Below, in pieces: positions 7,256 to 30,025 of a DNA stretch of 64,000 nucleotides. The position numbers and the translations under genes are program-made. The notes under the pieces are model-generated. The model worked only from the letters and a program-made list of their open reading frames with translations. It was not told where the DNA came from and did not search any database. Position 1 is the stretch's first letter, and the number at the start of each line of letters is the position of its first letter. The stretch is from Nitrospiraceae bacterium (GTDB lineage Bacteria > Nitrospirota > Nitrospiria > Nitrospirales > Nitrospiraceae): contig JBFWWG010000002.1 of the NCBI GenBank assembly GCA_050246315.1, forward strand, positions 160,001 through 224,000, given 5' to 3'.

Positions 7256-7741
7256 TCACTCAACGACCCATACGGCGTACCCGCCCGCCTGTTTCAACAG
7301 CCGACGCGTGATCCCGCCGAAAAAGAGGCTTTTCAAGCCGGAAACGCCACGGCGGCCGACCACGATGGCCTGATAACCGCCCTTCCTCGCTTCTTCGAGA
7401 ATGGTCTCGACGATATCTTCGCCATAGCCGAACTTCATTCGGATACGAGAGGCGTGAAAGCCAGTTCGCTCCAGCGTCCGACGAGCCTTCGACAGAATAG
7501 GAGATTCCAATCTCTGCTCCTGCTTGTACCAGTCCTTTCGCTCTCTCCTGAGTTGCCTGCCCAACTCTTCTTCACGAGCAGGATCTTCGGATCCTCCATG
7601 TTCCCGCAAAACCGGTGGCAGTGGGTTAAGAACGTGAAAGAGCGTCACGGTCACGGCGGGCGTGGACCGCAGTAGCCGCCCCACATGTTGCACCGCCCGC
7701 GTGGAATCCTTGGAGCCATCCACCGCAACGAGAATTCGCAT
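7256..7741 (-). CDS. Universal stress protein
   Basis: MRILVAVDGS...IVVGRRGVSG...FGGIT USP signature. Confidence 0.9.
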   Translation of the reverse strand: MRILVAVDGSKDSTRAVQHVGRLLRSTPAVTVTLFHVLNPLPPVLREHGGSEDPAREEELGRQLRRERKDWYKQEQRLESPILSKARRTLERTGFHASRIRMKFGYGEDIVETILEEARKGGYQAIVVGRRGVSGLKSLFFGGITRRLLKQAGGYAVWVVE

Positions 7742-9362
7742 CAAGAGGTCGCTCCCATCGGTTGAGCACTGAAGGTCAGCTTGGCTTTTGAATATGTTCC
7801 GGTCGGCCCGCCTCTGCAACGGACGCTGAGAGGATGGCGCGAGACAAGCAACTCCAGCTTCATAGTCCACCTCTCCCCGACAGGAAAACGCCCGCGTTCT
7901 CTTGTCGGCCTCAGGAGCCCACCCACAGAGCGCGATGGCCTAGAAATCATTTCGAATTGGTGGCGTCCATCGGAACAGGTCTTATACGGCGCCAGCATGT
8001 TGCGCTTGCGCGACGACGGAGCAGCCGCCTGGGACGTCGTCTCCAGCATCAGTGCAGCTTTCCGACGTCTGTGGTCCCTATCGGTATCATCCAGTGTGTG
8101 ATACCTCTTGAGGATCCTACCGATGCATGAATGATGCTCACCGCTTCAAGATCAGGCCGCAAGCAGTCCTTTTCATAATCTCAGATCATGGCCCGAGAGA
8201 TAGGTTGCCTGCATCAGGCCATTCACCGTTCTCCTCGCGCACTCTCAAGGAAGACAGGAGTGTCGGTCCGAGGGACGTCGTTCTTGGAGAAGTGAAACGA
8301 GCTTGAGGGTTGGTCTTGTACATGACTTGCTCAAGGATGTGAGAAGCCATGACACCATCACAATTTGAGGCAATGCCCTTTCAACTCATCAAAGATCCCC
8401 ACGGAATCCCACCTTATGCAAAACTGTATCCGTCTCAGGCGAGGAGCGATTGAGCCAGGGTCAACGGAAAGTACGGTGCCACTTCCCCATCTCTTCCTGA
8501 CGAATGGTAAGGCTCGAGGTGGGTTGGTCATTTCCCATTGATAGGACATACGAGGAGTGACTTTGGTACCGTCCACTCTGCAAGCAGGACACCCTGTCCT
8601 ATTTGGCCCTCGTAGGCATGACGAAAATAATAGACCACAAGCTCTTGATGCTCTGTCTCCTCACGTGATTCGAGCATTTTCGCTCAACGCGCACAGTGTG
8701 AAAAGCGAACAACGCGCAGAAGGTTGGTACTCCCCTTAACATCGATCTCGCGTTTGTTCCCTATTCCGTTGGTGGTGAACCTCCTTCCGCGCAAATTCGG
8801 AATGTCTCTGTCGCGCATTCAATCGGGACCAAGACTTGCCTGTTTCTCATGTGATCTTGAAAGCAGTGGGGTCCGCCATTCACGAAGCGACGATTCAAGA
8901 GCTATCGCAGCGGAAGGCAGACTTCCTGGCGAGGTCGGCACCGCCTTAGGTCGTTCGCCGCCCCTGTGGCTCTTCCACAAGGAGGACTGCCGGCGCGTCG
9001 AATTGAGTCTACTGCCGGTCCAAAAAACTCAGGGCATGAGCCTGATCGATGAAGGCGAAGCCATGGGTACCGACAGCCATCTCCAGGTAGCACAACCCAC
9101 CCGGATTGTTCGAGGCAAGAGAGGTTATGATCAAGCCCAACTGGTACTGACGCAGGATGGAGCACTCAAATTGCAGGTGCGCTGCTTGACAGGGCAGGTC
9201 AATGAGTCCATGCCGGCGCATAGCCTGGAAGCCGTCACTTGAGAGAAGCGGACTGTTCAACGTCTACTTTTCTTCATGGAGAATCGGAGGTAGCACCACC
9301 GGAGCCATGAGCCACAGCTAAGCCGTCGCCCCGTCACTGAACAAGATAGAACGCATCACCCT

Positions 9363-11558
9363 ATGCAAGACTCACACATTCTTATGGAATGGAGCCGTTT
9401 TACCTCAGGGTCGGCGATCGCGAATGTCGTGCGCCCCATGATCCTGGAATCATGGGCCCGTTGCGTTGAGACCGGAATGCGCGCCGAACCCCAGTCGCTC
9501 AGCTTCAGACGGGTCAACGATGGCGAACTTGTGCAACGCCTCCAACAGAGCCGCGAGGTGCTAGAGAGAGCGAAGCCGTACCTCCGCCTGATCTCGACGG
9601 TCCTTGGATCGATCAAACACGTCGTCTATCTTGTCGATCATCAAGGCATTGTCCTCAAGAGCTGCGGGAATGCTCCCGATCTCCATCGTCGCGTTGGGCT
9701 CCTTCCGGGCTATGACTGGTCAGAGCGTGCGATGGGAACCAACGGAGCGGGAACGGCGTTGCTAACGGGCCGGCCTATCGCGGTGATCGGCCCCGAACAC
9801 TTCATGCGACATCTGCACGACTGCGCCTCCACCGCTGCGCCCGTCCATAATGAGGCCGGAGCCGTGATCGGAGCGCTTGCGATCGTCACCGCCGCAACGG
9901 ATGCGACGCCGGAACGGCTGAACATCGTCGTGCCATTCGCTTCTGCGATCGAACAAGAATCAGCCTCGATCGCCCGTAGCAAGGAGCTCATGCGGCTCGT
10001 CCAAGGCCCATACGCGCTCCTGGAACAGCACATGGCGCCCTTCTCTCCGGTTGGGGCGGCATGCATGAGCAACGAGCCGACCTGCCGAGAGTTGATCGAC
10101 TCGCTCCCCGCCGCGGTGTATCTCTGCGATGCGAACGGGGTCATTGTTCACTACAACCGTCTCGCCGCCCAGTTATGGGGTCGCGAGCCTCGGTGCGGCG
10201 ACCCTAGCGAGCGATTCTGCGGGGCCACCACCATATATCTTCCGGATGGAACCCTGCTCACTCACGAGCAGATGCCGACCGCGAGGGTCTTGCGCACCGG
10301 CCTCCCTCAGGACAATCGCGAATTGATCCTTGAGCGGGCAAACGGATCGCGCAGAACGGTCTTGGTGAATGCGGTTCCGCTCAAGAACGAGTCGGGAGAA
10401 GTCATCGGCGCGATGAACTGCATGTTTGACATTACAGATTGGAAACGCGCGGAAGACGCCGTAAGGAGTCGCGACGCCCGTCTTTCACACATCTTCTCCA
10501 GCGTCCCTGTCGTGCTCTACGAAGCCGAAGTGATCGAACCCTTCGGGCGGACTTGGGTCAGCGACAACATCGAAGGCCTCTCCGGTTTTCCCTCCGGACG
10601 CTTTATCGAAGATCCCGGGTTTTGGGCATCTCGATTACATCCAGACGACCGCGAACCAGTGCTCCGGACATTCGCCTCGCTCGGGGATCATGAGCGGCTT
10701 AGTTCCGAATACCGGTGGCAGCATGCCGACGGTCGATATCGCTGGTTCCTTGATCAGGTCGTCATTCAGCGCGACACCAACGGTCGGCCGACCGCCATTC
10801 TCGGGACGCGGCAGGACATGACCGAGCAAAGAGAAACCCGCCACCAGCTTCAGCAGTCGCTGGATCAATTGCGGATGCTCTCCCGCCGGCTCGAATTGGT
10901 GAGAGAAGAAGAACAGCGCAGGCTCGCCCGCGAAATTCATGATGAATTGGGAGTCTTGATGACCACGATGAAATTGGACCTCGCCCAGATGACCGGGTTG
11001 CTCATCGACGCGGGTCTTGGAACGGCGGCGCCTTCGTTACGACACAAGATCGTCTCGCTCGACAGTACATTGGATCAGACCATCACGGTGGTGCAACGGA
11101 TCGCCGCCGATCTTCGCCCAGGCGTGTTGGACGATCTTGGTCTGATCGCGGCGATCCAGTGGCAGGCTAAAACATTCCACTCTCGAACCGGTATTCATTG
11201 CGACGTGATCGCGGATACGGAGGATCCGCAGATCGATCCCGAACAGGCCACCGCATTGTTTCGTATCTGTCAAGAAGCACTTACGAACGTGGCACGACAC
11301 GCTCGGGCCACCTCCGTGGTCATCCGCTTCAGCGAAACAGGGGGACAAATCCTCCTCGAGATCGAGGACAATGGGCGAGGCATTCCGTCCGACAAACTGA
11401 CTGACCGCATGTCGCTGGGTCTGCTCGGCATGCGAGAACGGGCAAGCCTCGGTGGAGGAGAGGTCCATATTTCGGGGAAGCCTGGCAAGGGGACCATTAT
11501 CATCGTGCGCATGCCAACCGTTTCGGGGCACATGAATGCTGCGCACCAGACCTTGTAG
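9363..11558 (+). CDS. Soluble sensor histidine kinase GAF-PAS-PAS-HisKA_3-HATPase
   Basis: AcoR-like GAF (WSERAMGTNG), two PAS/PAC domains, RLAREIHDELG H-box, QEALTNVARHA, DNGRG. Confidence 0.93.
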   Translation: MQDSHILMEWSRFTSGSAIANVVRPMILESWARCVETGMRAEPQSLSFRRVNDGELVQRLQQSREVLERAKPYLRLISTVLGSIKHVVYLVDHQGIVLKSCGNAPDLHRRVGLLPGYDWSERAMGTNGAGTALLTGRPIAVIGPEHFMRHLHDCASTAAPVHNEAGAVIGALAIVTAATDATPERLNIVVPFASAIEQESASIARSKELMRLVQGPYALLEQHMAPFSPVGAACMSNEPTCRELIDSLPAAVYLCDANGVIVHYNRLAAQLWGREPRCGDPSERFCGATTIYLPDGTLLTHEQMPTARVLRTGLPQDNRELILERANGSRRTVLVNAVPLKNESGEVIGAMNCMFDITDWKRAEDAVRSRDARLSHIFSSVPVVLYEAEVIEPFGRTWVSDNIEGLSGFPSGRFIEDPGFWASRLHPDDREPVLRTFASLGDHERLSSEYRWQHADGRYRWFLDQVVIQRDTNGRPTAILGTRQDMTEQRETRHQLQQSLDQLRMLSRRLELVREEEQRRLAREIHDELGVLMTTMKLDLAQMTGLLIDAGLGTAAPSLRHKIVSLDSTLDQTITVVQRIAADLRPGVLDDLGLIAAIQWQAKTFHSRTGIHCDVIADTEDPQIDPEQATALFRICQEALTNVARHARATSVVIRFSETGGQILLEIEDNGRGIPSDKLTDRMSLGLLGMRERASLGGGEVHISGKPGKGTIIIVRMPTVSGHMNAAHQTL

Positions 11559-11631
11559 GCCATTATTTTAGGAAGCACCGGTAACCGCCGGTGTCTTGAC
11601 GATTGGCGGTCACACAGCAGCGAGGGGGCTG

Positions 11632-12255
11632 ATGTATCGCATTCTGGTTGCCGATGATTTCCCGGTCATTCGGGAAGGCGTCACCAAGGTCGTGAGTAAG
11701 GTCATGCCGGTGACGATCGGCGAGGCCGCCGATATTCCCGAAATGTTGCGGCTCGTCCGGACTCAAACTTGGGATGTCCTCGTGCTGGACATCAATATGC
11801 CGGGAGGGAGCTCGATCGACGCGCTGCGGGAGGTCAAACGCGAATATCCCAAGTTGCCGGTTCTGGTGCTGAGTATGTATCCGGAGGAGCAGTACGCATT
11901 GCGGATGTTTAAGGCCGGTGCCAACGGATACCTCACCAAGACGGCGATCCCCGCTGAATTGGTGCAAGCCATCCAGAAGGTGCTCGGTGGCGGCAACTAT
12001 GTCACCCCGCTGATCGGCGAACAACTGGCCGTGGCCTATGGAGTTCCAGGCATGCATCGCAATCATCTCAGTAATCGCGAGCTGGAGGTCTTGAGGCTGA
12101 TCGCTTCGGGCAACACATGCACGGAGATCGCCGACGAACTGTCGTTGAGCGTGACGACCATCATCACCTACCGAGCGCGCATTCTCGAGAAGCTTCATCT
12201 GAGAAACAACATGGACCTGACGCGATACGCGCTTGAGCAGAAACTGGTCGTCTAG
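11632..12255 (+). CDS. NarL/LuxR-family response regulator
   Basis: VADD, LDINMPG, LSNRELEVL HTH. Confidence 0.95.
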   Translation: MYRILVADDFPVIREGVTKVVSKVMPVTIGEAADIPEMLRLVRTQTWDVLVLDINMPGGSSIDALREVKREYPKLPVLVLSMYPEEQYALRMFKAGANGYLTKTAIPAELVQAIQKVLGGGNYVTPLIGEQLAVAYGVPGMHRNHLSNRELEVLRLIASGNTCTEIADELSLSVTTIITYRARILEKLHLRNNMDLTRYALEQKLVV

Positions 12256-12637
12256 CCCGCATTCTTCACGAGAGGTGGTCACGAAACCGTACAGATGCGA
12301 CGCGGTGAACCCATTGCATTGGAAGCGCAATGGGTCTCGTGCGAAGAGCCTCAACCTGAAGGGTTGTCGCTATCTGCGAAGCTCCATCCGAAGGGCGAAC
12401 GAATCACACGCAAGACGGACGAGAGACAAAAGCCACCGGCGGATCTCTTTATCGGCGTCGAGACAGAAGGGCTTCGTCCGATGAGCCGCTGGTTCATACT
12501 AAGTGGGGTATGTCCCTCTTCGCTCCTCTCCCGCTCCCGACCGGCTGGACGGCCTTTTTCAACAGGCTCCGGACTATGTTGAGCCCATGGGCGAGCTCCA
12601 GCCCGGAGCTCACAGTAGTTTCGTGACAGCCTGCTAG
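12252..12637. repeat. Nested MITE-like intergenic element (repeat family copy A)
   Basis: Bounded by CTAG; inner IR AGGTGGTCACGAAAC (12273-87) / GTTTCGTGACAGCCT (12618-32); core shared with the 47.4 kb and 58.5 kb copies. Confidence 0.7.
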
Positions 12638-12685
12638 TCGTTCCTCCAGACAGATACCGACCAACGTTGCAGCACGCTGCCACGC

Positions 12686-14059
12686 TCACGAGGTTTCTTG
12701 GGGGTTATGCCAGCCGCCGTCGATAAGCCGATCGGCCTCACGAGGACCCCAGGTGTTCGGCTCGTATTCGTACAACGGCGTCGCCACTCCTAGGATCGGT
12801 TCCACCACACGCCAGGCGGCCTCCACGCCGTCTTCGCGTGCGAAAAGCGTGGCGTCGCCCCTGACGGCATCGCCAAGGAGACGTTCGTAGGCATCCATAT
12901 TGTCCCCGGAGCTATGGTGCGCGACAAGCTCGATGCGCTCTCCCACCATCGCTTCCCCTGGCACCTTGGCCTTGGTGCCCAGGGCGATCAGCACGTCGGG
13001 GCTGAGCCGAAAGCGAAAATGGTTCGGTAGCGCCGGTTCGCGCTCGTCCAACACGGGGCAACACGGCCGCTTGAACTCGACCAGCACCTCAGTCGCTGTG
13101 ACGCGGAGGCACTTGCCGACCCGCACATAGAACGGCACGCCGGCCCACCGATCGCTGTCGATGTGAAACCGGAGTGCCGCGAACGTTTCCACCAGTGAGT
13201 CGGGTGCTACGCCGTCCTCCCGTCGATAGCCGCGGAACTGGCCCCGCACAACGTCTGAAGGACCGACCGACCGAATGGTCCGAAAGACCTTCACGCGTTC
13301 GCTTCGCATCGCTTCATGCTCGCTCTCGGCGGGCTGCTCCATGGCCAAAGTGGCGATCAACATCAGCATGTGATTCTGCACCACGTCTCGGATTGCTCCC
13401 GCCTCTTCATAGAAACGCCCACGACCCTCCACGCCGAAGCGTTCGGCCATCGTGATCTGCACACGTTCGACATGGCTGCGATTCCAACCGGCTTCGAGAA
13501 ACGGATTAGCGAACCGGAAGTACAGGAGGTTTTGGACCGGCTCTTTTCCAAGGTAGTGATCGATGCGGAAGATGGCTTGCTCCGGGAAATGCGCGCGCAG
13601 CGTCTTATTGAGCCTTTGAGCCGACGCCACGTCTCGACCGAAGGGCTTTTCCACAATAACGCGGGCATGAGCGACACAGCCGGACGTTGCCAAACTTTCG
13701 ATCACCGGCGCGAACAGACTGGGGGGAATGGCCAAATAGTACAGCGGGCGGCTCGCGGCAGCGAGTTCCTTGCGCAGACGGCCAAACGTGCTCGGATCGC
13801 GATAGTCGCCATCGACATACCGGAGCAATCCGGACAGCTTGGTGAACGCCGATCCGTCCACACCGCCGGATTTCTCGAGGCTGTCGTGGACGCGCATCTT
13901 CAACTGATCGAGATTCCATCCTGACTTCGCTACACCAATGACCGGTATATCAAGCTGGCCGCGACGGACCATGGCCTGTAGGGCAGGGAAAATTTTCTTA
14001 TGGGCAAGATCGCCGGTGGCGCCGAAAAACACGATCGCATCGGACTTTACAGTCACCAT
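12686..14059 (-). CDS. zwf: Glucose-6-phosphate 1-dehydrogenase
   Basis: [21 protein letters not shown] motifs. Confidence 0.97.
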
Positions 14060-14178: not shown

Positions 14179-14338
14179 CACCCGGTGCGCATGAAGAGGC
14201 AACGGGGACCCGACCGTCGCCGAGCTAGACGGACAAGCACCGGCATGGTGGCACACGCTTTGGGCGCCGTTCGAAGCCCGGCATTCCGGATTCAAGAGGA
14301 GGATCGTGGTTTCCAAGTGCTGCGACCAGAGCGTCCGC

Positions 14339-14701
14339 TCACGCATGCTCTTTCAGATTGCGCTCGAGATAAGACTTTAACGCGAGCGCGTTGTTGTGCT
14401 CCTTGTCCTTCGCCCCGTACAGCAACGTGATGGGACCCTTTCGGACCGCCAGAAGGAGCGGACGCCAGGCTTCAGGCTTCTTGTCGAGCTCGGCGAAATA
14501 CCGGGTTTGGAATTCTTCCCATTTGTTCGGATCGTGATCGAACCATCGGCGCAGCTCCTCGCTCGGCGCCACATCCTTCAACCAGCCGTCCACATGGAGC
14601 GAGGTCCGCTTGACTCCCCTTGGCCACAGTCGATCAATCAAGAAACGGACTTCCTGACCATCGGATGGAACCATCTCATATGCTCGTTTCACCTGTATCA
14701 C
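14339..14701 (-). CDS. DUF488 (YeaO-like) protein
   Basis: IDRLWPRG, WLKDVAPSEELRRWFDH, HNNA motifs. Confidence 0.92.
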   Translation of the reverse strand: MIQVKRAYEMVPSDGQEVRFLIDRLWPRGVKRTSLHVDGWLKDVAPSEELRRWFDHDPNKWEEFQTRYFAELDKKPEAWRPLLLAVRKGPITLLYGAKDKEHNNALALKSYLERNLKEHA

Positions 14702-15142
14702 AATCTCCCCTCGCTCAGCTTCTTCGATGCCGAGCCCCCGGCCTCGGCGAGAAGCTGACGCTCCTGTCGAATGACCAGGACACCTCTCTCGCTCGTCCGT
14801 TCTTTCCGCCGCCCGCCGGTTGGGACTTGGTATCGCCCCGGCCCCGCTTGCCGGACATCGGCATCGCTCCGTTGCCTCAAGTCGAATTCAACCTCTTTCG
14901 AACGTCATGCTCATAACGACAACGCCGAGGTTTTCCTGCATCCGCGGGCAGCCAGCACTTCTCAACGTCGAATCACGCCATGAGGCAGGCAACCGGAATG
15001 GAGAGATCTGATGGGCCAATCGTCACTATGGCCGATATGGCCGAGAACCGCCGCTTCACCGTGCCGCGGCGACAAGTCCTCGGACGTCCCCCGCACGTGA
15101 GGAAAGCAGACAAACCGCAACTGCCCACGCGGCAGTCGTTCG

Positions 15143-16663
15143 TCAAGGCGCACCACCCTCGAATTGCAATCGTTCTTCTTCCTCTCTCTGTAGCGCGGTG
15201 ATCATCGAGTCCTGCATCAGTCGATGCATCTCTGCGCGCTCCACTTCCGTCAGACACGTCTTGGCGTCCTGGACGGCTGCCGTCAACAACGTCGAGGCCA
15301 GGGACGAAGGACTCTGTGAGAGGACCGATGCCATTGCGACAACCTCCGCGTAGATGCTCTGGTCAAGCTCCAAGACGAGCTGTTTTCCCCGAGGTCGGGT
15401 AGCCCCCGGCCCGGTTCCGGAAACGGACCGGATTGTCCGGATCAACGCCGCCACAGGACTGCCGTGCTCGAAGCCAAACATCACCATGTTCAGAAAGCGG
15501 TTTTCAAACTCCTTTTTCGCTTCATACACCCAGCGCCCCTGCTTGAGTTCGGTGATGTCTCCCACCGGGACGCGGAGTGCGGACAGGTATGCGGCATGGT
15601 CCTGTCCGCCTTCCATCACCCGCCGCCTGTGTTCTTCGTTCGCGCGTTGAAGAGGCCGGCCATGTAAGCCTGCAACGAGGTTATGGCAGGCGATGTGCAC
15701 CTCCTCCTGGATCGCGTCCACAGTTTGAGGAAGGCCGACCTCCACCGGGGTTGAGGAAGCGCGACTCGGGGTAATGCAGATCCCTGTCGCGAAGACCTTC
15801 TCGTATCGCTCGCTTCTTAGGTAGTGATCGACCTTGAGCAACCCATGGGCATCGGTGGGAAGAGCGCTGGCGGCAACGGCAGGGATGCCGCCGAACCGCG
15901 GCCAGTAGACACCGAAGACATAGCGAATGTCTTCTCCATTCGTGCTTCCATCATCCCTGTGTCTCGTGATACGGATGCGTTCGTCCGTCACGTCGACGGT
16001 TTCGGCGCTTCCGATCCACTGAATGTCATGAGCCGTCAAGGCACGAGTCAGTGGCTCTTGTAAAGCCGAGCCGCCGATACCCAAATGGCCTTGGTAGGGT
16101 TCCGGGGTGATGACGGTGATCGGCGCGCGGCGCCTGATCCCGCGCCTCCGAAGATCGGCATCGACGAGAAAGGCGTATTCGTAGACGGAGCCCAGAATCG
16201 CCGCGCCGGGCGCCGCGCCGATCACCATGGGTCCGGGGCGACGCACAAACTGTTCGTAGGCCTGCCTAGTCTCCAACGCCTGTTCGAGGGTAAGCACGCT
16301 ATGGAGCGCTGCGAGACCGGGAACCTCGTGCCATCGAGGAACGGCACCGCAGGCGATTATGATGGCATCGTAGGAGAGTTCCTGGGTCTTATCGACCATG
16401 ATGCGACTGCGATCGGCGTCGATGGTCGTTACGGCTCCATGTACGAAACCGATTCCGTGCGCCTCTAGGTACGGCTTCATAGGGATGACGATGTCGGCCT
16501 CGATGCGCCAACCGACCGCCAGCGCCGGATTGGAAGGGACGAACTGAAAATAGTCTCGGTCTGACACGACGGTGATGCGGGCGTCGGCGCCAAGCCGGCG
16601 CTTGAGCTCATAGGCGGCCGGCACGCCGGCGATACCGGCGCCCATCACGATAAGGTCGGGCAT
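15143..16663 (-). CDS. SQR-like flavoprotein lacking catalytic Cys, with C-terminal RHH-like extension
   Basis: GAGIAG FAD motif, FQFVPSNP, EPYQGHLGIGG, GRWVYEAK match type I SQR; start MPDLIVMG after GGAG RBS, 35 bp after narI. Confidence 0.88.
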   Translation of the reverse strand: MPDLIVMGAGIAGVPAAYELKRRLGADARITVVSDRDYFQFVPSNPALAVGWRIEADIVIPMKPYLEAHGIGFVHGAVTTIDADRSRIMVDKTQELSYDAIIIACGAVPRWHEVPGLAALHSVLTLEQALETRQAYEQFVRRPGPMVIGAAPGAAILGSVYEYAFLVDADLRRRGIRRRAPITVITPEPYQGHLGIGGSALQEPLTRALTAHDIQWIGSAETVDVTDERIRITRHRDDGSTNGEDIRYVFGVYWPRFGGIPAVAASALPTDAHGLLKVDHYLRSERYEKVFATGICITPSRASSTPVEVGLPQTVDAIQEEVHIACHNLVAGLHGRPLQRANEEHRRRVMEGGQDHAAYLSALRVPVGDITELKQGRWVYEAKKEFENRFLNMVMFGFEHGSPVAALIRTIRSVSGTGPGATRPRGKQLVLELDQSIYAEVVAMASVLSQSPSSLASTLLTAAVQDAKTCLTEVERAEMHRLMQDSMITALQREEEERLQFEGGAP

Positions 16664-16698
16664 GATTACTCTCCGATCCTGCGTCGCGGTCACCCTCG

Positions 16699-17391
16699 CT
16701 ACCGCCGGTGCAACCCCGAACGCACCACCTGATACGGCCGCACGAGATAGCCCAGCAGCGCAAACCCACTCCAAATGTGAACCAGCCTGCTGAAGGGAAT
16801 GAGCGCGAACAGCGTCATCCCCAAAACCAGGTGAACCTGATAGACCAACGGCATGGTCGCCACCAAGGACGCCGCGCCGCCCCGAAACGTGACGATATGA
16901 CGGGCCCATTGGGACAAGGGAATCAGGTAGCCTCCCGAGAGTTCGCGGGCAGAAAAATATAGAGTGGTGAGGCCGAACAACAGGGTGAGAAGAATCCACA
17001 CCAGCACGACCAGATCCATCACATGCGTGGTTGCGCGGATCCTCGCATCCGTGACCCGGCGATGAATGAGCAGGAGCAGACCGGCCAAGCAAACAGATCC
17101 AAAGAGGCCGCCGCTGATCATGGCCACCAACTGATGCCCGCGCAGACTGATCCCCAGAATTCCAAACACTTCCGGCAGGAGGAGACCGACGAAATGTCCC
17201 AGAAAGAGGAACAGCACTCCGACATGAAAAAGATTGCTGCCGAGCCGGAGCGTATTTCGCTTGAGCAGCTCGCTCGAATGGCTCGTCCAGGTATACTGGC
17301 CCCGTTCAAAACGCAGCAAACTACCCAGGAGAAACACGGAGCCGGCTAGATAGGGATAAATCTGAAAGAAGAACTCGTGGACATCGCCCAT
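16699..17391 (-). CDS. narI: Respiratory nitrate reductase gamma subunit
   Basis: YPYLAG, YTWTSHSS, heme-ligand His in LFHVG/LGHF/VHL/LVHIW, RPYQVVR. Confidence 0.96.
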   Translation of the reverse strand: MGDVHEFFFQIYPYLAGSVFLLGSLLRFERGQYTWTSHSSELLKRNTLRLGSNLFHVGVLFLFLGHFVGLLLPEVFGILGISLRGHQLVAMISGGLFGSVCLAGLLLLIHRRVTDARIRATTHVMDLVVLVWILLTLLFGLTTLYFSARELSGGYLIPLSQWARHIVTFRGGAASLVATMPLVYQVHLVLGMTLFALIPFSRLVHIWSGFALLGYLVRPYQVVRSGLHRR

Positions 17392-17400
17392 TGCGTCTCA

Positions 17401-18030
17401 TCATCCTCTCGAATCATGTCGAGCATCACCAGATCCGCCAGAGCCAGCGAAGTCACTCGCCGGAGTCCACCGCATTGAACTCCGATCACGGTTGCCTCGC
17501 ATTGTGGAGAGGATTGGGGTCAGCGCCGAACGGGAAGTCAGCGTCAGAAGAGCCTCGAAAGCGCCGACGTAGGGAGAGCCGGTATCTGCAAGCCGGTGGC
17601 GCAGGATCTGTACGACATCGTCGATGTCGGCGAGTCGCCCTTGCGCGTCTTTCGGCGGGATCAGGGACAGGAACTCGAGAAACAGCGGAAGAAAATCCGG
17701 CAATTCCCGGCTCGTCGGCTCCAGACCGAACCGTCGGTATTCTTCCACCAGTCGAGCCATCGCCTCACCTCGCTCGCGAGAATCCCCCATCCTGTGCTCG
17801 AAGACATGCAGTGAATGAGCGGCATTGCGATCAAACGTCTCGACATAGGCTTCCTGTAGATCGATCAACGGTCCGCGTTCGAGATAGGTGAACAGCCCCT
17901 CAAGCCGACGCCCGGCACGCCGGCCTCGTCCGGTCTCGGCGGAGACCATCGCCCGCAACTCACCGACCGACTGGAGCCAGTCCTGTTGGGGATAGGTCAA
18001 GAGCAGCGCGATGGCCTTATAGAGCCTCAC
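17401..18030 (-). CDS. narJ: Nitrate reductase chaperone
   Basis: YVETFD, SRERGEAM, ELPDFLPLFLEFL. Confidence 0.95.
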   Translation of the reverse strand: MRLYKAIALLLTYPQQDWLQSVGELRAMVSAETGRGRRAGRRLEGLFTYLERGPLIDLQEAYVETFDRNAAHSLHVFEHRMGDSRERGEAMARLVEEYRRFGLEPTSRELPDFLPLFLEFLSLIPPKDAQGRLADIDDVVQILRHRLADTGSPYVGAFEALLTLTSRSALTPILSTMRGNRDRSSMRWTPASDFAGSGGSGDARHDSRG

Positions 18031-19612: not shown

Positions 19613-22600
19613 TTAGCCCGTCGTCGGACCGGCGCTCCATGTGACATGATCGAGCTTCCGCACGACGACCATCTCGTCTCGGTTGGTCCCGACCGTTCCA
19701 TAGTAGTTGTAGCCATAGGCCAGGTGCGCATAGCCACCGATCATGTGAGTCGGCTTCATCACAATCCTCGTCACGCTGTTGTGAATGCCCCCTCGCCGTC
19801 CCGTGGTCGGGGCCAGCGGCATGTTGATGATCTTGTCCTGCGCGTGGTACATCATCGCCACTCCGCGCGGAATCCGTTGGCTGAGGATCGCCCGCGCCAC
19901 CAGCGCGCCGTTGACGTTGACGACCTCGATCCAATCATTGTCCCGGATACCAACTTCCTTGGCTTCCGTCTCCGACAACCAGACGACGGGACCGCCTCGG
20001 GACAAGGTAAGCATCGGACTCGTCTCGCTGTAGGTTGTATGGATTCCCCACTTCTGGTGAGGTGTGATCCAACTGACGATAAGGACGTTCTTTTCATCCT
20101 CTCCCCGCCGACGGCTCAGCGCGTCAACGGATCGGGTATCCACGGGCGGCTTGTACGCACAGACCTGCTCGCCGAAGAGGCGCATCCACGGATGATCCTG
20201 GTAAAGCTGTTGGCGCCCGGTCAGGGTCCGCCAGGGGATGAGTTCCTGGATGTTGGTATAGTTCCCTGTGTAGGAGACCTTTTCCGACTCGATGCCGCTC
20301 CAAGTTGGCGAGGGGATGACCTTCCTGGGCTGGGCCACCAGGTCATCGAATGAGAACGATTCCTCGGCCCGCCCCTCGGCCAGATGTCTGTGCGATCGAC
20401 CGGTCCGCTGCGAGAGAGCGTCCCAGGCCTTGACCGCGACGCGACCGTTCGTTTCCGGAGCCAACGTCAGGATGGCTTGCGCCGCCTGTCGTGCCGTGTT
20501 CAGTTTCGGATAGGACTCTCGCTCGTCCAGGCTCACCTCCCCATTGACCTGGCGCAGCGCTTCGACCTCTTCCCTACTGTCCCATACGATTCCCTTCGCC
20601 CCGGTTCCCAGATCGCGCGTTAACGGCCCGAGTCTGATGAATCGATCGTAGGTCTCGCCATAGGGTCGCCTGACCACCGTCATGGTGGGCATCGTCTTGC
20701 CGGGGATGGCTTCACAATCTCCTCGCTTCCAGTCATCCGCCCTCATCGGCTGACCGAGCTCGCTCGGTGTATCGTGCAACAGAGGCGTCAGCACCAGGTC
20801 CTTTTGCGTGCCAAGGACCGGTCCGGCAAGTTCGGAAAACTTCCTGGCGATTTCTTTGAAAATCTCCCAATCAGACTTGCTCTCCCAGAGGGGATTCACG
20901 GCTTCACACAGCGGGTGGATGAAGGGGTGCATGTCCGACGTGTTCAGATCGTCCTTTTCATACCAGGTCGCGCTGGGCAGCACGACATCGGAATACAGGC
21001 AGGTCGAGGACATACGAAAATCGAGCGTCACAAGCAGATCGAGCTTTCCTGTGGCAGCCTCATCTTGCCAGACGACTTCGCATGGAAGCGGCGCCTCCTG
21101 TTCCTTGAGATCGGGTGCCAGGACGCCGTGGGGAGCACCGAGCAGATGCTTCAAAAAGTATTCATGACCCTTGGCGCTCGATCCGACCAAGTTGGAACGC
21201 CAGAGGAAGAGGTTTCGAACAAAATTTTGAGGATGATCGGGATCTTCCGAACCGATCGCGAGCTTGCCGCTTCTGAGCTGCTCGACGGCATACGCGATGG
21301 GGTGCGTTCCTGTCGCTTCCGCTTCGCTCACGACATCGAGCGGATTCCTGTTGAGCTGAGGCGCGGAAGGAAGCCAGCCTCTGCGTTCGGCCCGTATGTT
21401 CCAATCAATAAGATGTGTGGCATCCGCATCCGGATCGTCCTTGGCCGTCGGCGAGAGAATATCCGCCGGTCGCAGCGTTTCATACCGCCACTGGTCGGTA
21501 TGGGCATAAAAGAAGGAGGTACCGTTCATGTGTCGAGGCGGCCGGAGCCAATCCAATGCGAACGCCACGGTGGTCCAACCGGCAAGCGGCCGCACTTTTT
21601 CCTGTCCGACATAATGAGCCCACCCGCCGCCCGATCGCCCGACGCACCCGCACATGACCAGGATGTTGATGATCGCGCGGTAGACCATGTCGGTGTGGTA
21701 CCACTGATTGATCCCGTTCCCGACGATGACCAGTGAACGGCCTCGGGTCTTGTCCGCGTTCTCCGCGAACTCACGGGCGAGACGGATGATCTGATGGCGG
21801 GGGACGCCCGAATGTTTTTCGGCCCAGGCCGGCGTATAGGGCATGTCCCGATCGTAGTTCTGTGAAGTCTGATCGTCTCCAAGCCCTCGATCGAGACCGT
21901 ATCCGGCCAGCAGGAGATCATAGGCAGTGACCACGAGGCTCTCGCCATGAACGGTGCTGAGCCGCCGGGCCGGAACCAACCGGTGCATGATGGATGGGTG
22001 ATCGTCCTCAAAGTAGGGAAAGGCGACCGACACGATCTCGTCGGCCTGCGGCAGTACGCTCAGGGCCGGCACGATCTTGCGTCCGGTCGTCGCGTCGATC
22101 AGATCGAGATTCCACCGTCCTTTCTCGCGCCACCGAAAGCCGATGCTGCCGTGAGGCGCGCACAGATGTCCGGTGGCCTCATCCACGATCACCGTCTTCC
22201 AGTCCGGATTGTTGGTTTCGCCCAGTTGGCCGTCGAAGTCGGATGCTCGAACAAACCGGCCCGGCTCATATCCGTCGCCGGCGGGGCGCAGGAAGACCAA
22301 CATGGGCATGTCGCTGTACTGGCGGCAGTAGTCCAGAAAGTAGGGACTGCGGGCGGTCAGATGAAATTCCTTCAGGATGACATGGCCGAGCGCCAGGGCC
22401 AACGCGGCATCGGTGCCTCGGCGGGGAGCCAACCAAAGATCCGCAAACTTCACGTATTCCGCGAAGTCCGGAGCCACGGCGACGGTCTTGGCGCCTTTGT
22501 ATCGGGCAGCCGTATAGAAATGTGCATCGGGAGTCCGCGTCTGCGGAATGTTCGATCCCCAGACGACAATGTAGGAGGAGTTGTACCAGTCGGCAGCCTC

Positions 22601-23314
22601 GCACACGTCGGTCTGCTCGCCCCAGACCTGGGGTGATGACGGCGGTAAGTCAGCGTACCAGTCGTAAAACGACGGGATCACCCCGCCGATCAAGGAGAGA
22701 TACCGGCTACCTGCCGCAAAACTCACCATCGACATCGCGGGGATGGGAGAAAACCCCGCGATGCGGTCCGGACCGTACCGCCGGATCGTATAGACATTGG
22801 CCGCCGCGATCAGTTCCGTGACCTCGTCCCACGACGCGCGCACGAAGCCGCCCTGTCCTCGGATCGACGTGTAGTGCCCGCGTTTTTGCGCGTCCTCAAC
22901 GATCGATGTCCAGGCTTCGACCGGTGGCAGTGCTTTCCGAGCATCACGCCACAAGGCCATCAAGCGTCCTCGCACCAACGGATACTTGACGCGTTGCGCG
23001 CTGTAGACGTACCAGGAATAGCTCGCACCCCTGGGGCATCCGCGAGGTTCATGATTCGGCAGATCGGCGCGGGTCCGAGGGTAGTCCGTCTCCTGGGTCT
23101 CCCACGTGATCAAGCCGTTCTTCACGTAAATTTTCCAGCTACATGAACCGGTACAGTTGACCCCGTGCGTGGACCGCACCACCTTGTCGTGATTCCAGCG
23201 ATCACGATAGGCGTTCTCCCATGTGCGATCCTCTCGCCTGACGACCCCGTGTTTCCCTGCAAACGTCTCAAGGTTTTCACGGAAGAATAAGAGCCGGTCG
23301 AGGAAGTGACTCAC
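19613..23314 (-). CDS. narG: Respiratory nitrate reductase alpha subunit (cytoplasmic, no Tat signal)
   Basis: MSHFLDRL N-terminus, HGVNCTGSC...PRGC FS0 motif, YADLPP Mo-ligand Asp; GTG start. Confidence 0.97.
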   Translation of the reverse strand: MSHFLDRLLFFRENLETFAGKHGVVRREDRTWENAYRDRWNHDKVVRSTHGVNCTGSCSWKIYVKNGLITWETQETDYPRTRADLPNHEPRGCPRGASYSWYVYSAQRVKYPLVRGRLMALWRDARKALPPVEAWTSIVEDAQKRGHYTSIRGQGGFVRASWDEVTELIAAANVYTIRRYGPDRIAGFSPIPAMSMVSFAAGSRYLSLIGGVIPSFYDWYADLPPSSPQVWGEQTDVCEAADWYNSSYIVVWGSNIPQTRTPDAHFYTAARYKGAKTVAVAPDFAEYVKFADLWLAPRRGTDAALALALGHVILKEFHLTARSPYFLDYCRQYSDMPMLVFLRPAGDGYEPGRFVRASDFDGQLGETNNPDWKTVIVDEATGHLCAPHGSIGFRWREKGRWNLDLIDATTGRKIVPALSVLPQADEIVSVAFPYFEDDHPSIMHRLVPARRLSTVHGESLVVTAYDLLLAGYGLDRGLGDDQTSQNYDRDMPYTPAWAEKHSGVPRHQIIRLAREFAENADKTRGRSLVIVGNGINQWYHTDMVYRAIINILVMCGCVGRSGGGWAHYVGQEKVRPLAGWTTVAFALDWLRPPRHMNGTSFFYAHTDQWRYETLRPADILSPTAKDDPDADATHLIDWNIRAERRGWLPSAPQLNRNPLDVVSEAEATGTHPIAYAVEQLRSGKLAIGSEDPDHPQNFVRNLFLWRSNLVGSSAKGHEYFLKHLLGAPHGVLAPDLKEQEAPLPCEVVWQDEAATGKLDLLVTLDFRMSSTCLYSDVVLPSATWYEKDDLNTSDMHPFIHPLCEAVNPLWESKSDWEIFKEIARKFSELAGPVLGTQKDLVLTPLLHDTPSELGQPMRADDWKRGDCEAIPGKTMPTMTVVRRPYGETYDRFIRLGPLTRDLGTGAKGIVWDSREEVEALRQVNGEVSLDERESYPKLNTARQAAQAILTLAPETNGRVAVKAWDALSQRTGRSHRHLAEGRAEESFSFDDLVAQPRKVIPSPTWSGIESEKVSYTGNYTNIQELIPWRTLTGRQQLYQDHPWMRLFGEQVCAYKPPVDTRSVDALSRRRGEDEKNVLIVSWITPHQKWGIHTTYSETSPMLTLSRGGPVVWLSETEAKEVGIRDNDWIEVVNVNGALVARAILSQRIPRGVAMMYHAQDKIINMPLAPTTGRRGGIHNSVTRIVMKPTHMIGGYAHLAYGYNYYGTVGTNRDEMVVVRKLDHVTWSAGPTTG

Positions 23315-23384
23315 GCTTGACTCCTACGACACATGACTAAAGGACGGTCGACCTGGCTTACGCATGAGCAGACATTCGACGGTG

Positions 23385-23400
23385 TGCAATGACAGTACCA
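23385..23400 (-). promoter_or_regulatory. Putative sigma54 promoter of nar operon
   Basis: TGGTAC-TGTCA-TTGCA (GG-N10-GC) ~70 bp upstream of narG. Confidence 0.65.
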
Positions 23401-23522
23401 AGATACCGAAATCGAGAAGCGAGCGTAATTGTCACTATCAGTCGCCGCCGTTCTCTGACGAATCGATCGTTTCCGCACGGTTTGCACAGTGTGGTATGGC
23501 CGTAAAGAAGACGACTGATTAC

Positions 23523-23700
23523 ACCCCTCTTGGTCATACGCGTGCGGAGTTTCACGATGGCGAACGTGGATTCAATCGGATTGGCGCTCTGGACGGGCTT
23601 CCAGTGCGCTGCGGGAAGTCGAAGTGGAGTAGGAGGCGCGGCACGTCCGCGAGGAGCGTCTTGACAGCCTTCGGATACTTCGTCTTGTAGTCCTGGCGAA
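23523..23700 (-). pseudogene. IS256-family transposase fragment with frameshift
   Basis: YKTKYPKAVKTLLADVPRLLLHFDFP / (1-nt deletion ~23613) AAHWKPVQSANPIESTFAIVKLRTRMTK matches the IS256 C-terminal pattern. Confidence 0.85.
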
Positions 23701-23705
23701 TCGTG

Positions 23706-24689
23706 TCAAAACACGAGGGTCCAGCCCTCGCGTTGAGCCTCTTCGCGCGTGTAGGCCACGCCGTGCACTTTCAAGCCCTGCGCGTCCAGCAAGGTGATGA
23801 TGCCGCCGTCGTTTCCCAATTGCACGGTTGGCGAGAGGGAAATCTGGACGGTTGCGCCGGGGTCAAGGGTGCCTCCCAGGACATGCTTGCGCTTGAGCTT
23901 GTCGGCTATGGCCCACCCGTTCAGGGTGATCCGCTGAGGGGTCGTATTCAACAGCGTGACCGTTTCGTTCTCCGGTGATGGACCGGCCGGATTGACCAGC
24001 GCGGCAATGATACGGACCGTATGATCCGGCTGTTCTCCTTCGATGCGATGACCCGTTCGGTCATCGCTGTGCCAGAGTTGTGACTGGAACTTGAGAAAGA
24101 TCGCCACCCACTGGCTGCGAGAGGGGAACTGAATCAGTACCGCGCCGTCTTGCCACACGCCATCATCGTCTCGGAAGGCATCGGAGTTCGCTTGGTTCAT
24201 GTGAATATCGTGGATGCCATTGCCCGGCTTGAAGCCGAAATACGCGTCCTTCTTCTCTGTCTCCGGCCCCCATCTCTCACCGAATACGTAGATGACCGCT
24301 TCTTCCTCCGCCATCGCTTTCAGCACGTACCGATCAAACATCTCGTTCAAGTCGTTGTCGGGTCCTGGGAGATTAAATGGAAGCGGTTTCATCCTCGTCC
24401 GATCGAAGAGGTTGCCGCGGATGAAGTCGAGGGGCAGGCCTCCAGGCCGACTCTGAAGCGAAGTGAACCCGAGCGGAAGACTCGATAATCCCGTGGTGAT
24501 GGGGTGATGGAAGGCATCATCAACGAGGTATTCCAGTTCCGACGGACTTTCCTTGGACTTGACATTCACTGCAATACGATAGTCCGAAGTCTCATCAATG
24601 AGGTGAATCTGATAGTGAGGACTGCTCCCCTGACCGAGTATTCGGCGAATGGGGCGTCCCTTCAACACGCCATAGCGCTTCAGCGGCAT
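23706..24689 (-). CDS. YukJ/DUF2278 domain fused to lamin-tail domain
   Basis: MPLKRYGVLKG, LDFIRG, GIHDIHMNQ, WQDG; C-terminal IIAALVNP...ETVTLLN...LGNDGGIITLLD LTD. Confidence 0.88.
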   Translation of the reverse strand: MPLKRYGVLKGRPIRRILGQGSSPHYQIHLIDETSDYRIAVNVKSKESPSELEYLVDDAFHHPITTGLSSLPLGFTSLQSRPGGLPLDFIRGNLFDRTRMKPLPFNLPGPDNDLNEMFDRYVLKAMAEEEAVIYVFGERWGPETEKKDAYFGFKPGNGIHDIHMNQANSDAFRDDDGVWQDGAVLIQFPSRSQWVAIFLKFQSQLWHSDDRTGHRIEGEQPDHTVRIIAALVNPAGPSPENETVTLLNTTPQRITLNGWAIADKLKRKHVLGGTLDPGATVQISLSPTVQLGNDGGIITLLDAQGLKVHGVAYTREEAQREGWTLVF

Positions 24690-24783
24690 ACGTGTCTCCT
24701 TTGCCCCGAGGCCACGCCAGCAACGTAGCCCCTCCCGTATTTCATCCTACGAACCCTATGTCTTCCTCTCATGGAGTGCATGA

Positions 24784-24799
24784 AGCAAGGGGCGTGCCT
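24784..24799 (-). promoter_or_regulatory. Putative sigma54 promoter of yukJ-like gene
   Basis: AGGCAC-GCCCC-TTGCT ~95 bp upstream of ATG. Confidence 0.6.
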
Positions 24800-25092
24800 T
24801 CCTGATTCGGACCTGGCTTCAATTGTTTCAAATAGATCAGTCGAGGACAGTGACCCTGCCGGCGGCTGCTGACGCACCCGAAAGGATACAGGCGTATCTA
24901 TCTCGATACTGATCAATTCTTCACGGGCGACAGAGGTCAAAGAAGAAGGTTCCCGGCATCTTTCCTACTGTCCTACATGGCGACCCCAAGACATACCTTG
25001 GCTCAAGCGGTGATGCCTGATTAGATAGGCGTAGATGAACTTTGAGCGATCGGTTAATCCCAAGCTCGCGAATATGTACAACCGGTAGTTGG

Positions 25093-26885: not shown

Positions 26886-27701
26886 TTAGCCGACCGCCGC
26901 AGGGTTCAGCATCGCCTGCTTGAGAGAGGAAACAAACGTTCCAACCGAGGCCACGAGGCTGGGATCCTGTTGGTGTGTCGCAATCTGCTTGACGATCGCG
27001 CTTCCGACGATGACCCCATCGGCCACGGCCGCAATGCGCGCCGCATCCTGAGGAGTAGCCACACCGAACCCGACGGAGATCGGCACGCGGGTGAGCTTTC
27101 GAATCCGCTTCACATTCTCCTCGACATTGGTCAAATCGGTCAGCTTGGCGCCGGTGATGCCGGTCAGCGAGACATAGTAGATGAAGCCCTTGGAGGCTTT
27201 GCCCACCGAGGCCCGCCTCGACGGAGTGCTGGTCGGAGCCAAGAGAAAGATCACGTCGAGGCCTGCTTGCTCGGCCCGGTCCTTCACGGGTCCGGATTCC
27301 TCCAGAGGCATATCCGGAACGATCAACCCGTCCACCCCCGCCTGAACCGCGTCTCGGCAAAACTCCTGCTCGCCGTAGGCATGGATCGTATTGTAGTAGG
27401 CCATCAGGACAAGGGGTATTTGAGTCTGCCGCCGCAGGCCGGCGACCATCGTCAGGATGCGCCTCAACGACGTCCCGCACCGTAGCGCGCGCTCGGCCGC
27501 CTGTTGGATCACGGATCCATCCGCAATCGGGTCCGAGAACGGGACACCAAGCTCGATGACATCGGCGCCGGATCGCTCCAACCCCAACACGAGTTGCTCC
27601 GTGTCTGGAAGCGAAGGATCTCCGGCCATCAAATAGGCGATGAGGGCCTTCTCCCCTCGCTGCTTCAACTCCTCGAACCGAAGATCCAGACGGTTCGTCA
27701 C
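26886..27701 (-). CDS. trpA: Tryptophan synthase alpha
   Basis: [25 protein letters not shown]. Confidence 0.97.
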
Positions 27702-28903: not shown

Positions 28904-28934
28904 TCGGATTCAGAGGAGAGTATAGCCACGCCTC

Positions 28935-29570: not shown

Positions 29571-29676
29571 CAGAATCTAGTCCACATTATTCATGGCACT
29601 TCGTGACGTTTCACCCGTTGCAATTTCAGAGCAACGGGTACCCGAAGACGCCCGCGGCGATTGCTCAGAATATCGG

Positions 29677-30003
29677 TCAGGGCGCACACACGGCCTTGCT
29701 GCGATGTTGGCCGTAGAAATCCCGGTACTCCCACTGGCAGGCCAACCCGTTTTGATCGAACGTGATGGTCATGTTTTCCGTTCGGCCGCCCTCCCCCTGC
29801 TGACTCCATTCGCAGACCTCGGTCCCGTTCTGGAACGCATAGCAGCGCGTCGGCAAGCCCAACTCGCGAACCCGGTCGTCCTTGTGGGCTCCCAGCCACT
29901 TGTCCCATTTGGCGCTGGCCTCCTTGACCTCGCCTCCGGCACAGCCAAGCAGGAGCACCGCCGTCATGGCGCTCATCGTAAACGTGACTGCGTGTCGTGT
30001 CAT
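29677..30003 (-). CDS. Small Cys-rich lipoprotein
   Basis: Lipobox LLGC, RBS AAGGAG; inside trp operon. Confidence 0.75.
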   Translation of the reverse strand: MTRHAVTFTMSAMTAVLLLGCAGGEVKEASAKWDKWLGAHKDDRVRELGLPTRCYAFQNGTEVCEWSQQGEGGRTENMTITFDQNGLACQWEYRDFYGQHRSKAVCAP

Positions 30004-30025
30004 GCCCGCATCGCTCCTTTCCCCG

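Follow-up and report, generated by a model that had tools for sequence, protein, structure and literature searches.

A sulfide:quinone oxidoreductase relative that has lost its catalytic cysteines and carries a predicted ribbon-helix-helix tail as the last gene of narGHJI operons

In type I sulfide:quinone oxidoreductase (SQR), the redox-active cysteines are Cys160 and Cys356, both essential, and Cys128, which belongs to type I (numbering of the A. ferrooxidans enzyme); in the flavoprotein PutA, the redox state of the flavin switches the protein between DNA and the membrane. Here, we describe a gene that recalls both systems: a new combination of an SQR-derived scaffold and a ribbon-helix-helix (RHH) module, each part being of a known kind. 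The gene lies in a 64,000-nucleotide stretch of DNA from a Nitrospiraceae bacterium (positions 160,001 to 224,000 of contig JBFWWG010000002.1, assembly GCA_050246315.1; the window, hereafter), as the fifth and last gene of a nar operon and on the same strand as narGHJI. A sequence-only reading of the window had proposed a catalytically dead SQR with an RHH-like tail; the coordinates that it gave (15143..16663) and the distance of 35 bp from narI are correct, and we add the strand, which is (-). The place as fifth nar gene is likewise borne out by Pfam calls on NarI, NarJ, NarH and NarG upstream. The descriptive part of our findings, that the gene belongs to a family derived from type I SQR, tailed with an RHH module and terminal in narGHJI operons of Nitrospiraceae and of Thiobacillus-type Betaproteobacteria, we hold to be close to certain.

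The earlier claim that the first ~400 residues are colinear with type I SQR stands: in a phmmer search of all PDB chains, residues 4-398 align with A. ferrooxidans SQR (3sx6/3kpk) at E 1e-73, and A. aeolicus SQR (3hyv) matches at E 6e-61. An AF2 model from a 50-sequence alignment (pLDDT 80.4) has a confidently SQR-like core and matches 3t31 in Foldseek at E 2.8e-39, with a TM of 0.82 on the target. The three catalytic cysteines are lost, also as claimed. In the HMMER alignment, C128 is replaced by L124 (in the context SVLT), C160 by I156 (AILG) and C356 by R348, the third arginine of HRRRVM; the equivalent of His132 is Q128, while S126 and H198 are retained as S122 and H193. A search of 5.8 billion clustered proteins gave 465 matches, and among the best 120 of them, to which all our homologue statistics refer, no protein has a cysteine at any of the three columns of a MAFFT alignment. 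The first column holds I, L, T, M or V and the second V, I or L, and the third is W in 105 proteins, R in 13, and P and L in one each. As a control, we used the translated tail-less SQR genes from a scan of 185,579 species genomes, in which 80 loci were kept, 15 with full-length tailed genes (L001-L015) and 65 with canonical, tail-less ones (L016-L080): in a further MAFFT alignment, all three cysteines and a histidine at the H132 column are present in 65 of the 65 canonical SQRs vs none of 33 tailed proteins.

The FAD-binding motifs, which the sequence-only reading considered to be retained, are in place, with G8, G10, G13 and G294 invariant and D35 nearly invariant. Also invariant are E162 (=E166), H193 (=H198), K383 (=K391) and E387 (=E395), with F386 (=F394) nearly so; from structural work on the A. 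ferrooxidans and A. aeolicus enzymes, we take E166, K391, F394 and E395 to have roles at the flavin or quinone site. Could the protein, then, be an ordinary SQR using other cysteines? Its fold and best PDB matches are those of SQR, and several homologues are named 'sulfide:quinone oxidoreductase' or 'FAD-dependent oxidoreductase' in the source databases. Against this stand the absence of cysteine from the catalytic columns, the loss of His132 and the best NCBIfam match, SQR_III_seleno, at 81.7 bits vs a cut-off of 525, with no type I model among the matches. The sole invariant cysteine of the tailed family, C296, was considered as a family-specific innovation and dropped: the canonical SQRs, which have the catalytic three too, also have a cysteine there in 62 of 65 cases, and it is therefore no replacement catalytic residue. 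We consider an ordinary SQR very improbable, and annotating genes of this family as SQR would lead to sulfide oxidation being attributed by mistake to Nitrospira and others.

The family is well delimited. The best 120 homologues are 504-530 aa long, and in 119 of them at least 93% of the query, including the tail, is covered. Fifteen are 72-80% identical to the window protein, those with a named source being from Nitrospira or Nitrospiraceae; the others are ~40-44% identical and, where named, come from Thiobacillus, Burkholderiales and Gammaproteobacteria, plus one metagenome-assembled genome of Thermoplasmatota. Elsewhere in the genome to which the window belongs, the nearest relative is a distant Pyr_redox protein (E 2.4e-10), and there is no further close homologue. 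In an IQ-TREE phylogeny of 97 core sequences (quick search, midpoint root only; L038, of 363 aa, dropped for length), a single branch of length 1.09 and SH-aLRT 100 parts the tailed proteins from canonical SQR, and the Nitrospira clade is nested within the tailed family on a long branch of its own (1.21). That branch and a poorly modelled loop at residues 348-379 are what one might expect of a decaying SQR remnant carried along with a horizontally acquired nar operon, and the sequence-only reading had seen a danger to itself in relaxed selection. No decay is seen, however. The reading frame is intact in every locus, and identities of 40-44% are retained over the full length across phyla; contigs from RNA libraries cover the gene. 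Between pairs of the genes from the window, L001 and L002, dN/dS is 0.20-0.22 for the whole gene, 0.19-0.22 in the core and 0.14-0.24 in the tail, reaching 0.4-0.7 only in the linker, in two of the three pairs and over just 12 codons; the corresponding values are 0.10-0.11 for NarG, 0.10-0.16 for NarH, 0.12-0.17 for NarI and 0.26-0.36 for NarJ. The gene is no pseudogene because it belongs to a conserved family, is under purifying selection and keeps a strict synteny with narGHJI. Decay is the least probable of all the explanations that we weighed, and both it and an ordinary SQR can be regarded as effectively excluded.

Behind the core, a linker of variable length and sequence across the family alignment leads to a conserved tail; both the G/P/T/R linker (GTGPGATRPRG) and the tail peptide singled out by the sequence-only reading are present in the translation. 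Within the last 80 residues, L491 never varies and F501 and G504 hardly do, and the best conserved part is the extreme C-terminal motif, which reads ..LQFEGGAP in the window protein and ..PGVEFHGGGT in most relatives. A profile of 16 tails, run against 1.84 billion representative proteins, gave 38 matches, consisting of family members and their fragments, stand-alone proteins of ~109 aa and weak matches at E 1e-3 to 1e-5; the last include P0156, clearly an RHH_5 protein (Pfam E 7.9e-22), and three proteins with faint RHH_5/ParD/Arc signals. Aligned with P0156 in hhalign, the tail profile scores 84% (E 7.8e-6) over tail columns 10-44. In an AF2 model of the tail alone (pLDDT 86.6), an extended stretch at the N terminus is accompanied by helices at 13-25, 30-46 and 51-80 in tail numbering, to which 422 is added for protein numbering. 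When compared to 48,161 representative chains with VIA-align, run independently of Foldseek, the top ranks are RHH almost without exception, with Z 7.3-5 and rmsd 0.7-2.2 Å over ~45 residues: CopA_SO (Z 7.3), Rv0298 (7.2) and the PutA RHH domain 2rbf_A (Z 6.8, rmsd 1.6 Å, 44 residues) are followed by TraM, TacA, NikR, omega, Arc and ParD, and model residues 2-50 are covered. The same RHH families lead in Foldseek; 2rbf_A holds rank 3 in both searches, with a TM of 0.78 on the target in the latter. Among the ESM-Atlas neighbours of the tail are copG-family and RHH_5 clusters, at 0.92-0.93.

RHH domains are obligate dimers joined by an antiparallel ribbon of two strands, and the predicted complex of two tail copies scores 0.50 vs 0.09 for the best control. 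That mark is reached by 20 of 30 solved homo-pairs and by one of 23 single chains, counts that are rough as a custom alignment was used. Runs agree in at least 97% of the contacts, with pLDDT of at least 77; contacts 8-8, 9-7, 9-9 and 10-6 describe an antiparallel ribbon centred on residue 430, and contacts 38-38 and 37-41 bring the two B helices together, although the pass possibly reflects likeness to solved RHH dimers. With the models and the profile links combined, an RHH fold of the tail is well supported. The sequence-only reading, which had suggested RHH from the strand-helix-helix pattern, is thus backed by the profile matches to RHH_5 proteins, by both structure searches and by the predicted ribbon dimer; among the checks of profile and structure, the Pfam RHH models gave a negative answer and AF2 with Foldseek and VIA-align, headed by RHH in their top rows, a positive one.

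The second line of evidence comes from the neighbourhood. Using tblastn with the window Nar proteins, 13 of the 15 tailed loci have narI directly upstream of the gene and in the same orientation, and further upstream come narJ, narH and narG as far as the contigs reach, and NarG, NarJ or NarI lies near none of the 65 canonical SQR loci. The two other tailed loci are at contig edges: L008 starts at the edge, and L014 has 369 nt upstream, encoding the end of a PpiC-type isomerase. The co-occurrence of cysteine-less, tailed homologues with narGHJI, raised by the sequence-only reading, therefore extends to 13 of 13 informative loci. Four arrangements recur: narGHJI followed by the gene (Nitrospira and L004); narGHJI, the gene, a dsrC-like gene and nnrS (10 loci, Thiobacillus clade); narGHJI, ppiC and the gene (L091, L092 and, partially, L014); and narGHJI and ppiC with the tail alone, as a 109-aa protein, behind them (L086-L088). 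Among 201 genomes of the family to which the window belongs, six are matched by the tail profile and seven by PF02665 (NarI); the six coincide with NarI genomes, the two matches being ~1.3 kb apart on one contig, and in the seventh (G116), residues 1-324 of the gene follow narI before the contig ends. All seven NarI-bearing genomes of the family carry the gene after narI, and 194 have neither. The cytoplasmic-type narGHJI is thus a minority trait among the Nitrospiraceae sampled, always accompanied by the gene; this is of interest for how nitrite oxidisers may use nitrate under anaerobic conditions.

In the order around the Thiobacillus genome of L003, the tail profile matches 19 of 301 genomes, all with a strong NarI match. 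Nine of the 19 matches are in open frames of 521-600 aa, and for eight of these nine fused genes the contig also has a strong NarI match, 1.3-2.4 kb away, whereas in G257 the two are on different contigs. NarI itself is far more common there, in ~113 of the 301 genomes (140 matches minus 27 weak partial ones; the count of 140 includes G408, flagged unpublished and in no other count), and with 11 adjacent cases among the ~113, about 90% of the sampled NarI-bearing genomes of the order are without the module. The window NarG is ~65% identical to the NarG of the Thiobacillus loci, and the operon and the gene have therefore probably travelled together; the sequences suggest that the nar operon, including its fifth gene, was acquired horizontally as a whole.

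The tail also exists without the flavoprotein. Stand-alone relatives of ~109 aa have the same ..PG-x-EF-xx-GG-T end and a different N-terminal part with two invariant cysteines, Cys23 and Cys58 in the proteins of L086-L088; they come from Chitinivorax, Pseudogulbenkiania, Vogesella and Aquitalea and are named only 'hypothetical protein'. The three closest (tail-profile E 1e-14 to 1e-21), from Betaproteobacteria, stand after narGHJI and a gene for a PpiC-type isomerase, the slot occupied by the fused gene in L091 and L092. As the tail occurs alone behind narGHJI-ppiC in these three genomes, the tail is in itself linked to nar. In a profile search of proteins of all lengths, the SQR-like domain is the only fusion partner of the module. 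More distant stand-alone paralogues (Pseudogulbenkiania/Aquitalea type; L081, L089 and L090) have no nar genes near them and are uninformative on Nar. In these loci, two small tail paralogues, of 109 aa and ~103-106 aa, are adjacent (8001-8857 in L081, from Pseudogulbenkiania) and adjoin divergent large open reading frames (699, 437 and 222 aa) that have no Pfam match; no nar gene was found within 8 kb. In L087, a DUF2249 gene comes after the stand-alone gene. A further candidate, at ~7690-7890 in L085 (G441), was not counted as a stand-alone gene: it is degenerate, with no start codon and an internal deletion. This fragment sits between nosL and nnrS and looks like a relic of a fused gene.

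The gene that follows in the Thiobacillus clade raises the possibility of an active enzyme. In 10 of the 15 loci, a 106-aa DsrC-like gene (PF04358, E 2e-33) comes directly after the SQR-like gene, and in eight of the 10 it is followed by nnrS. The protein could be a working quinone reductase that feeds Nar with electrons from a new, non-sulfide donor, an alternative also offered by the sequence-only reading, using thiols in trans, perhaps those of the DsrC-like protein, or direct hydride transfer: the flavin and the quinone-side residues are conserved, and a cytoplasmic quinone reductase and NarGHI would together form a complete redox loop. The DsrC-like protein, however, ends in ..ACKIAGMKRPRAWSTG, with one cysteine kept and the penultimate cysteine of true DsrC lost, and is absent from the Nitrospira loci and from the window. 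The former active site, now I/L, V/I and W (R in Nitrospira), has gained neither a conserved cysteine nor any candidate catalytic residue; the second dinucleotide loop, GAAPGAAILG, follows the SQR pattern, aligning with the SQR loop that bears C160, and not the GxGxxG of NADH enzymes; and the RHH module would be left unexplained. We find a new-donor enzyme improbable.

For the function of the protein, we suggest, at somewhat less than an even chance and in line with the sequence-only reading, a sensor-regulator of nar that reads the quinone pool in the manner of PutA, with DNA binding, FAD binding and quinone reactivity all being predictions. Under this model, the protein would no longer oxidise sulfide; its flavin would equilibrate with the membrane quinone pool via the retained quinone site, making the SQR-like domain a redox sensor, and the RHH dimer would be the output that binds DNA and tunes nar transcription by autoregulation, a PutA logic on an SQR scaffold with the RHH domain at the other chain end. 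A fuller version, in which the SQR scaffold has turned into a membrane-associated transcription factor whose flavin is reduced by quinol and whose RHH output autoregulates nar, and in which the module is a dedicated narGHJI component moved between Betaproteobacteria and Nitrospira, we would put forward more tentatively still. In favour of a sensor, we would count the near-universal DNA binding of the fold, since to our knowledge solved RHH domains almost all bind DNA; the single output module with alternative N-terminal parts, which by analogy would be typical of one-component regulators; and the physiology, as it would make sense for a quinol oxidase to respond to the quinone pool.

Several observations weigh against such a regulator. 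The evidence for the fold has its weak sides: Pfam RHH models match none of the 16 tails at E up to 10, apart from scattered chance single matches, and the tail profile finds nothing below E 0.5 among PDB sequences, the RHH-like 1y9b appearing only at E 2. Z scores below 8 are in a range that VIA-align itself calls common, and the Foldseek matches of the tail, at E 0.27 or worse, are not significant alone. The surface expected to read DNA is unusual. Residues alternate along the ribbon, 429, 431 and 433 facing the core and 428, 430 and 432 pointing outward, and the outward residues of the window protein, Q428, V430 and E432, are atypical for DNA reading; in the set of 120, 74 relatives have E and 14 have D at position 430, 62 have R or H at 432 and 53 have P at 428. 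The net charge of these relatives averages -1.0 in the RHH part and -4.7 over the whole tail, with -7 for the tail of the window protein, although the RHH domain of PutA itself presumably has a net charge of only about +1. No operator could be derived from the three Nitrospira regions upstream of narG, those of the window and L001 being near-identical and that of L002 unalignable. On the flavin side, the loop 348-379 that replaces the C356 region is modelled at pLDDT 32-40, and the state of the flavin re-face is therefore not modelled reliably. Finally, the last position in a structural operon, with stoichiometric co-expression, fits an accessory subunit equally well.

Such a subunit would be a flavoprotein at the cytoplasmic face of the membrane beside NarGHI, acting on the complex or its quinone supply, be it in assembly, stabilisation, local handling of quinone and quinol or as a structural partner; the RHH part would serve dimerisation only, and the third helix and the ..EF-x-GG end would dock on a Nar subunit or on the PpiC-type isomerase. 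The terminal place behind a tight 35-nt spacer, the perfect synteny with narI, the acidic tail with its ribbon atypical for DNA contact, and dN/dS values similar to those of NarJ and NarI all agree with this. So does the conservation of the C-terminal motif, the best conserved of the tail and common to the stand-alone proteins behind narGHJI-ppiC: it would be typical of a partner-binding peptide, in the way that the C-terminal part of an RHH antitoxin grips the toxin, and the RHH antitoxins AtaR, TacA and KacA are among the structural matches. On the other hand, contact with Nar subunits is conjecture, and the DNA binding of nearly all solved RHH domains that we are aware of speaks against a mere dimerisation device; moreover, with ~90% of the sampled NarI genomes of the Thiobacillus order being without the module, Nar evidently does not need it. 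We judge an accessory flavoprotein, the strongest of the rival readings, to be somewhat less likely than the sensor-regulator, which we continue to favour with due caution.

Some information on expression comes from RNA-library contigs of four runs from four studies (sludge or metagenome), which cover the gene at at least 99% identity. The junction of narI and the gene is bridged in all four (X1 16237-16884, X2 16167-16818, X4 16392-16795 and X7 16588-16972); contigs of this kind cannot establish that there is one transcript, where it ends or how abundant it is, and the libraries may contain DNA, which makes them a consistent but weak sign of co-transcription. A promoter scan found no promoter-like site in 14200-17500. 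The hairpin past the stop codon was rejected as a terminator: three sites were found vs a chance expectation of 2.4, and the RNA-library contigs continue past it.

Table 1. Positions of the gene, its parts and its neighbours in the window, and of associated genes in other loci (marked by locus).
Feature	Position	Strand	Evidence
SQR-like gene with RHH tail (P0001), 506 aa + stop	15143..16663	(-)	ORF and translation; Pyr_redox_2 E 2.5e-20; 120 full-length homologues listed
SQR-like FAD domain, residues 1-398	15470..16663	(-)	PDB alignment 3sx6/3kpk; column counts; AF2 and Foldseek
Short helix (403-414) and variable G/P/T/R-rich linker, residues 399-426	15386..15469	(-)	AF2, pLDDT 51-53
Predicted ribbon-helix-helix unit, residues 427-470 (strand 427-434, helix A 435-447, helix B 452-469)	15254..15385	(-)	hhalign, VIA-align, Foldseek, predicted homodimer
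Long third helix and near-invariant C-terminal motif, residues 471-506	15146..15253	(-)	family alignments
narI-to-gene spacer, 35 nt, GGAG ribosome-binding site	16664..16698	(-)	sequence
narI (gamma)	16699..17391	(-)	PF02665 E 1.7e-70
narJ (delta, chaperone)	17401..18030	(-)	PF02613 E 9.1e-12
narH (beta)	18027..~19600	(-)	Pfam Fer4_11 3.5e-37, Nitr_red_bet_C 4.4e-23; tblastn ranges
narG (alpha)	19613..23314	(-)	Pfam Molybdopterin 1.7e-70, Nitr_red_alph_N 9.6e-16
Terminator-like hairpin (weak), 5 nt past stop codon	15118..15138	(-)	1 of 3 sites vs 2.4 expected in shuffles
ppiC and 109-aa stand-alone gene region	L087 7033-8181; L088 ~7619-8802; L086 ~7746-8861		
DsrC-like gene	L003 11653-11973, L009 11604-11924; also L005, L006, L007, L010, L011, L012, L013, L015		

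Within the operon, the stop codon of narI is at 16699-16701, with the gap of 35 nt running to the ATG of the SQR-like gene; the start of narH is placed near 19600, as the listed open reading frame extends to 19934 and homology begins near its residue 112-121. Downstream, 3.6 kb from the operon end, a double-PAS histidine kinase with a HisKA_3 dimerisation domain, which is presumably of the type in NarX/DevS-like sensors, is encoded at 9363-11558 (+); no response regulator was recognised beside it, and the open reading frame at 11563-12354 has no Pfam match. DUF488 and G6PD genes come after the SQR-like gene in the window and in L001. In the Nitrospira locus L002, the gene is followed by a SLAC1/TehA-type anion channel (11638-12789; PF03595, E 1.8e-39), which may be a route for nitrite or nitrate. 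On the other side, between the nar operon and a trp operon (26886-34071), a DUF2278 protein with a lamin-tail domain and a 487-aa TIR-domain protein are encoded at 23706-26556 (-); they may be a defence or island-type insertion adjoining the acquired nar genes. The stretch upstream of narG at ~23361-23713 is common to the window and L001, and two of its frames resemble an IS256-type end, a likeness that is unconfirmed. A frameshifted C-terminal end of an IS256-type transposase in this stretch (-), between narG and the DUF2278/lamin-tail gene, was not retained as a feature: Pfam finds nothing there at E <=1.

Respiratory nitrate reductase has been much studied, yet the conserved fifth gene of its operon and the stand-alone tail have gone unremarked in the literature that we searched; full-text searches gave no account of a nar-operon gene for a cysteine-less SQR homologue. 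The T. denitrificans genome paper reportedly lists a 'sqr' gene adjoining narI, and the gene may thus have been listed earlier under the SQR name, with no comment on its cysteines or tail. If the protein is indeed a sensor-regulator, it would be a second, independent example of the PutA principle and would provide a direct protein link from the redox state of the quinone pool to nar expression.

Overall, each part of the protein has a described counterpart from which it departs. With type I SQR (3t31/3sx6 and 3hyv), it shares the flavoprotein fold of two dinucleotide-binding domains; besides the FAD motifs, counterparts of Ser126, His198 and Glu166 remain, as does the helix with K391, F394 and E395. 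The three catalytic cysteines and His132 of SQR are replaced by non-redox residues throughout the family, which in turn has an 80-aa tail, RHH by prediction, and a strict link to narGHJI that canonical SQR loci lack (0 of 65 with NarG, NarJ or NarI). Among relatives of the same superfamily, NDH-2 is a monotopic quinone reductase that works independently of cysteines and forms the second-best structural class (5kmp_A, E 1.4e-24); its match is far weaker than that of SQR, and the loop GAAPGAAILG of the window protein contrasts with the GxGxxG of NDH-2.

For the tail, the closest counterparts are RHH_5/CopG-like proteins and RHH antitoxins (CopA_SO 6iya, Rv0298 8u12 and TacA/AtaR/KacA), which have the same strand-helix-helix order and the ribbon dimer predicted here. 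Like the antitoxins, the tail has a C-terminal extension after the RHH unit, although no counterpart was found among RHH proteins for its third helix and ..PGVEF-x-GG-x end; unlike them, the module occurs on a flavoprotein or alone in nar operons, with no toxin gene adjoining. In its overall design, the protein comes closest to PutA of E. coli, both joining a membrane-type flavoprotein and an RHH dimer domain, here a predicted one, in one chain. PutA, however, has its RHH domain at the N terminus, together with proline dehydrogenase and P5C dehydrogenase domains unrelated to SQR, whereas the family has a C-terminal RHH module and an SQR-like domain only. PutA is catalytically active, and its ribbon carries basic and polar residues, Lys9 among them; in the family, the enzyme site is dismantled, and the ribbon reads Q/V/E in the window protein and P/E/R in most relatives. 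The likeness to PutA is thus one of logic and not of family membership.

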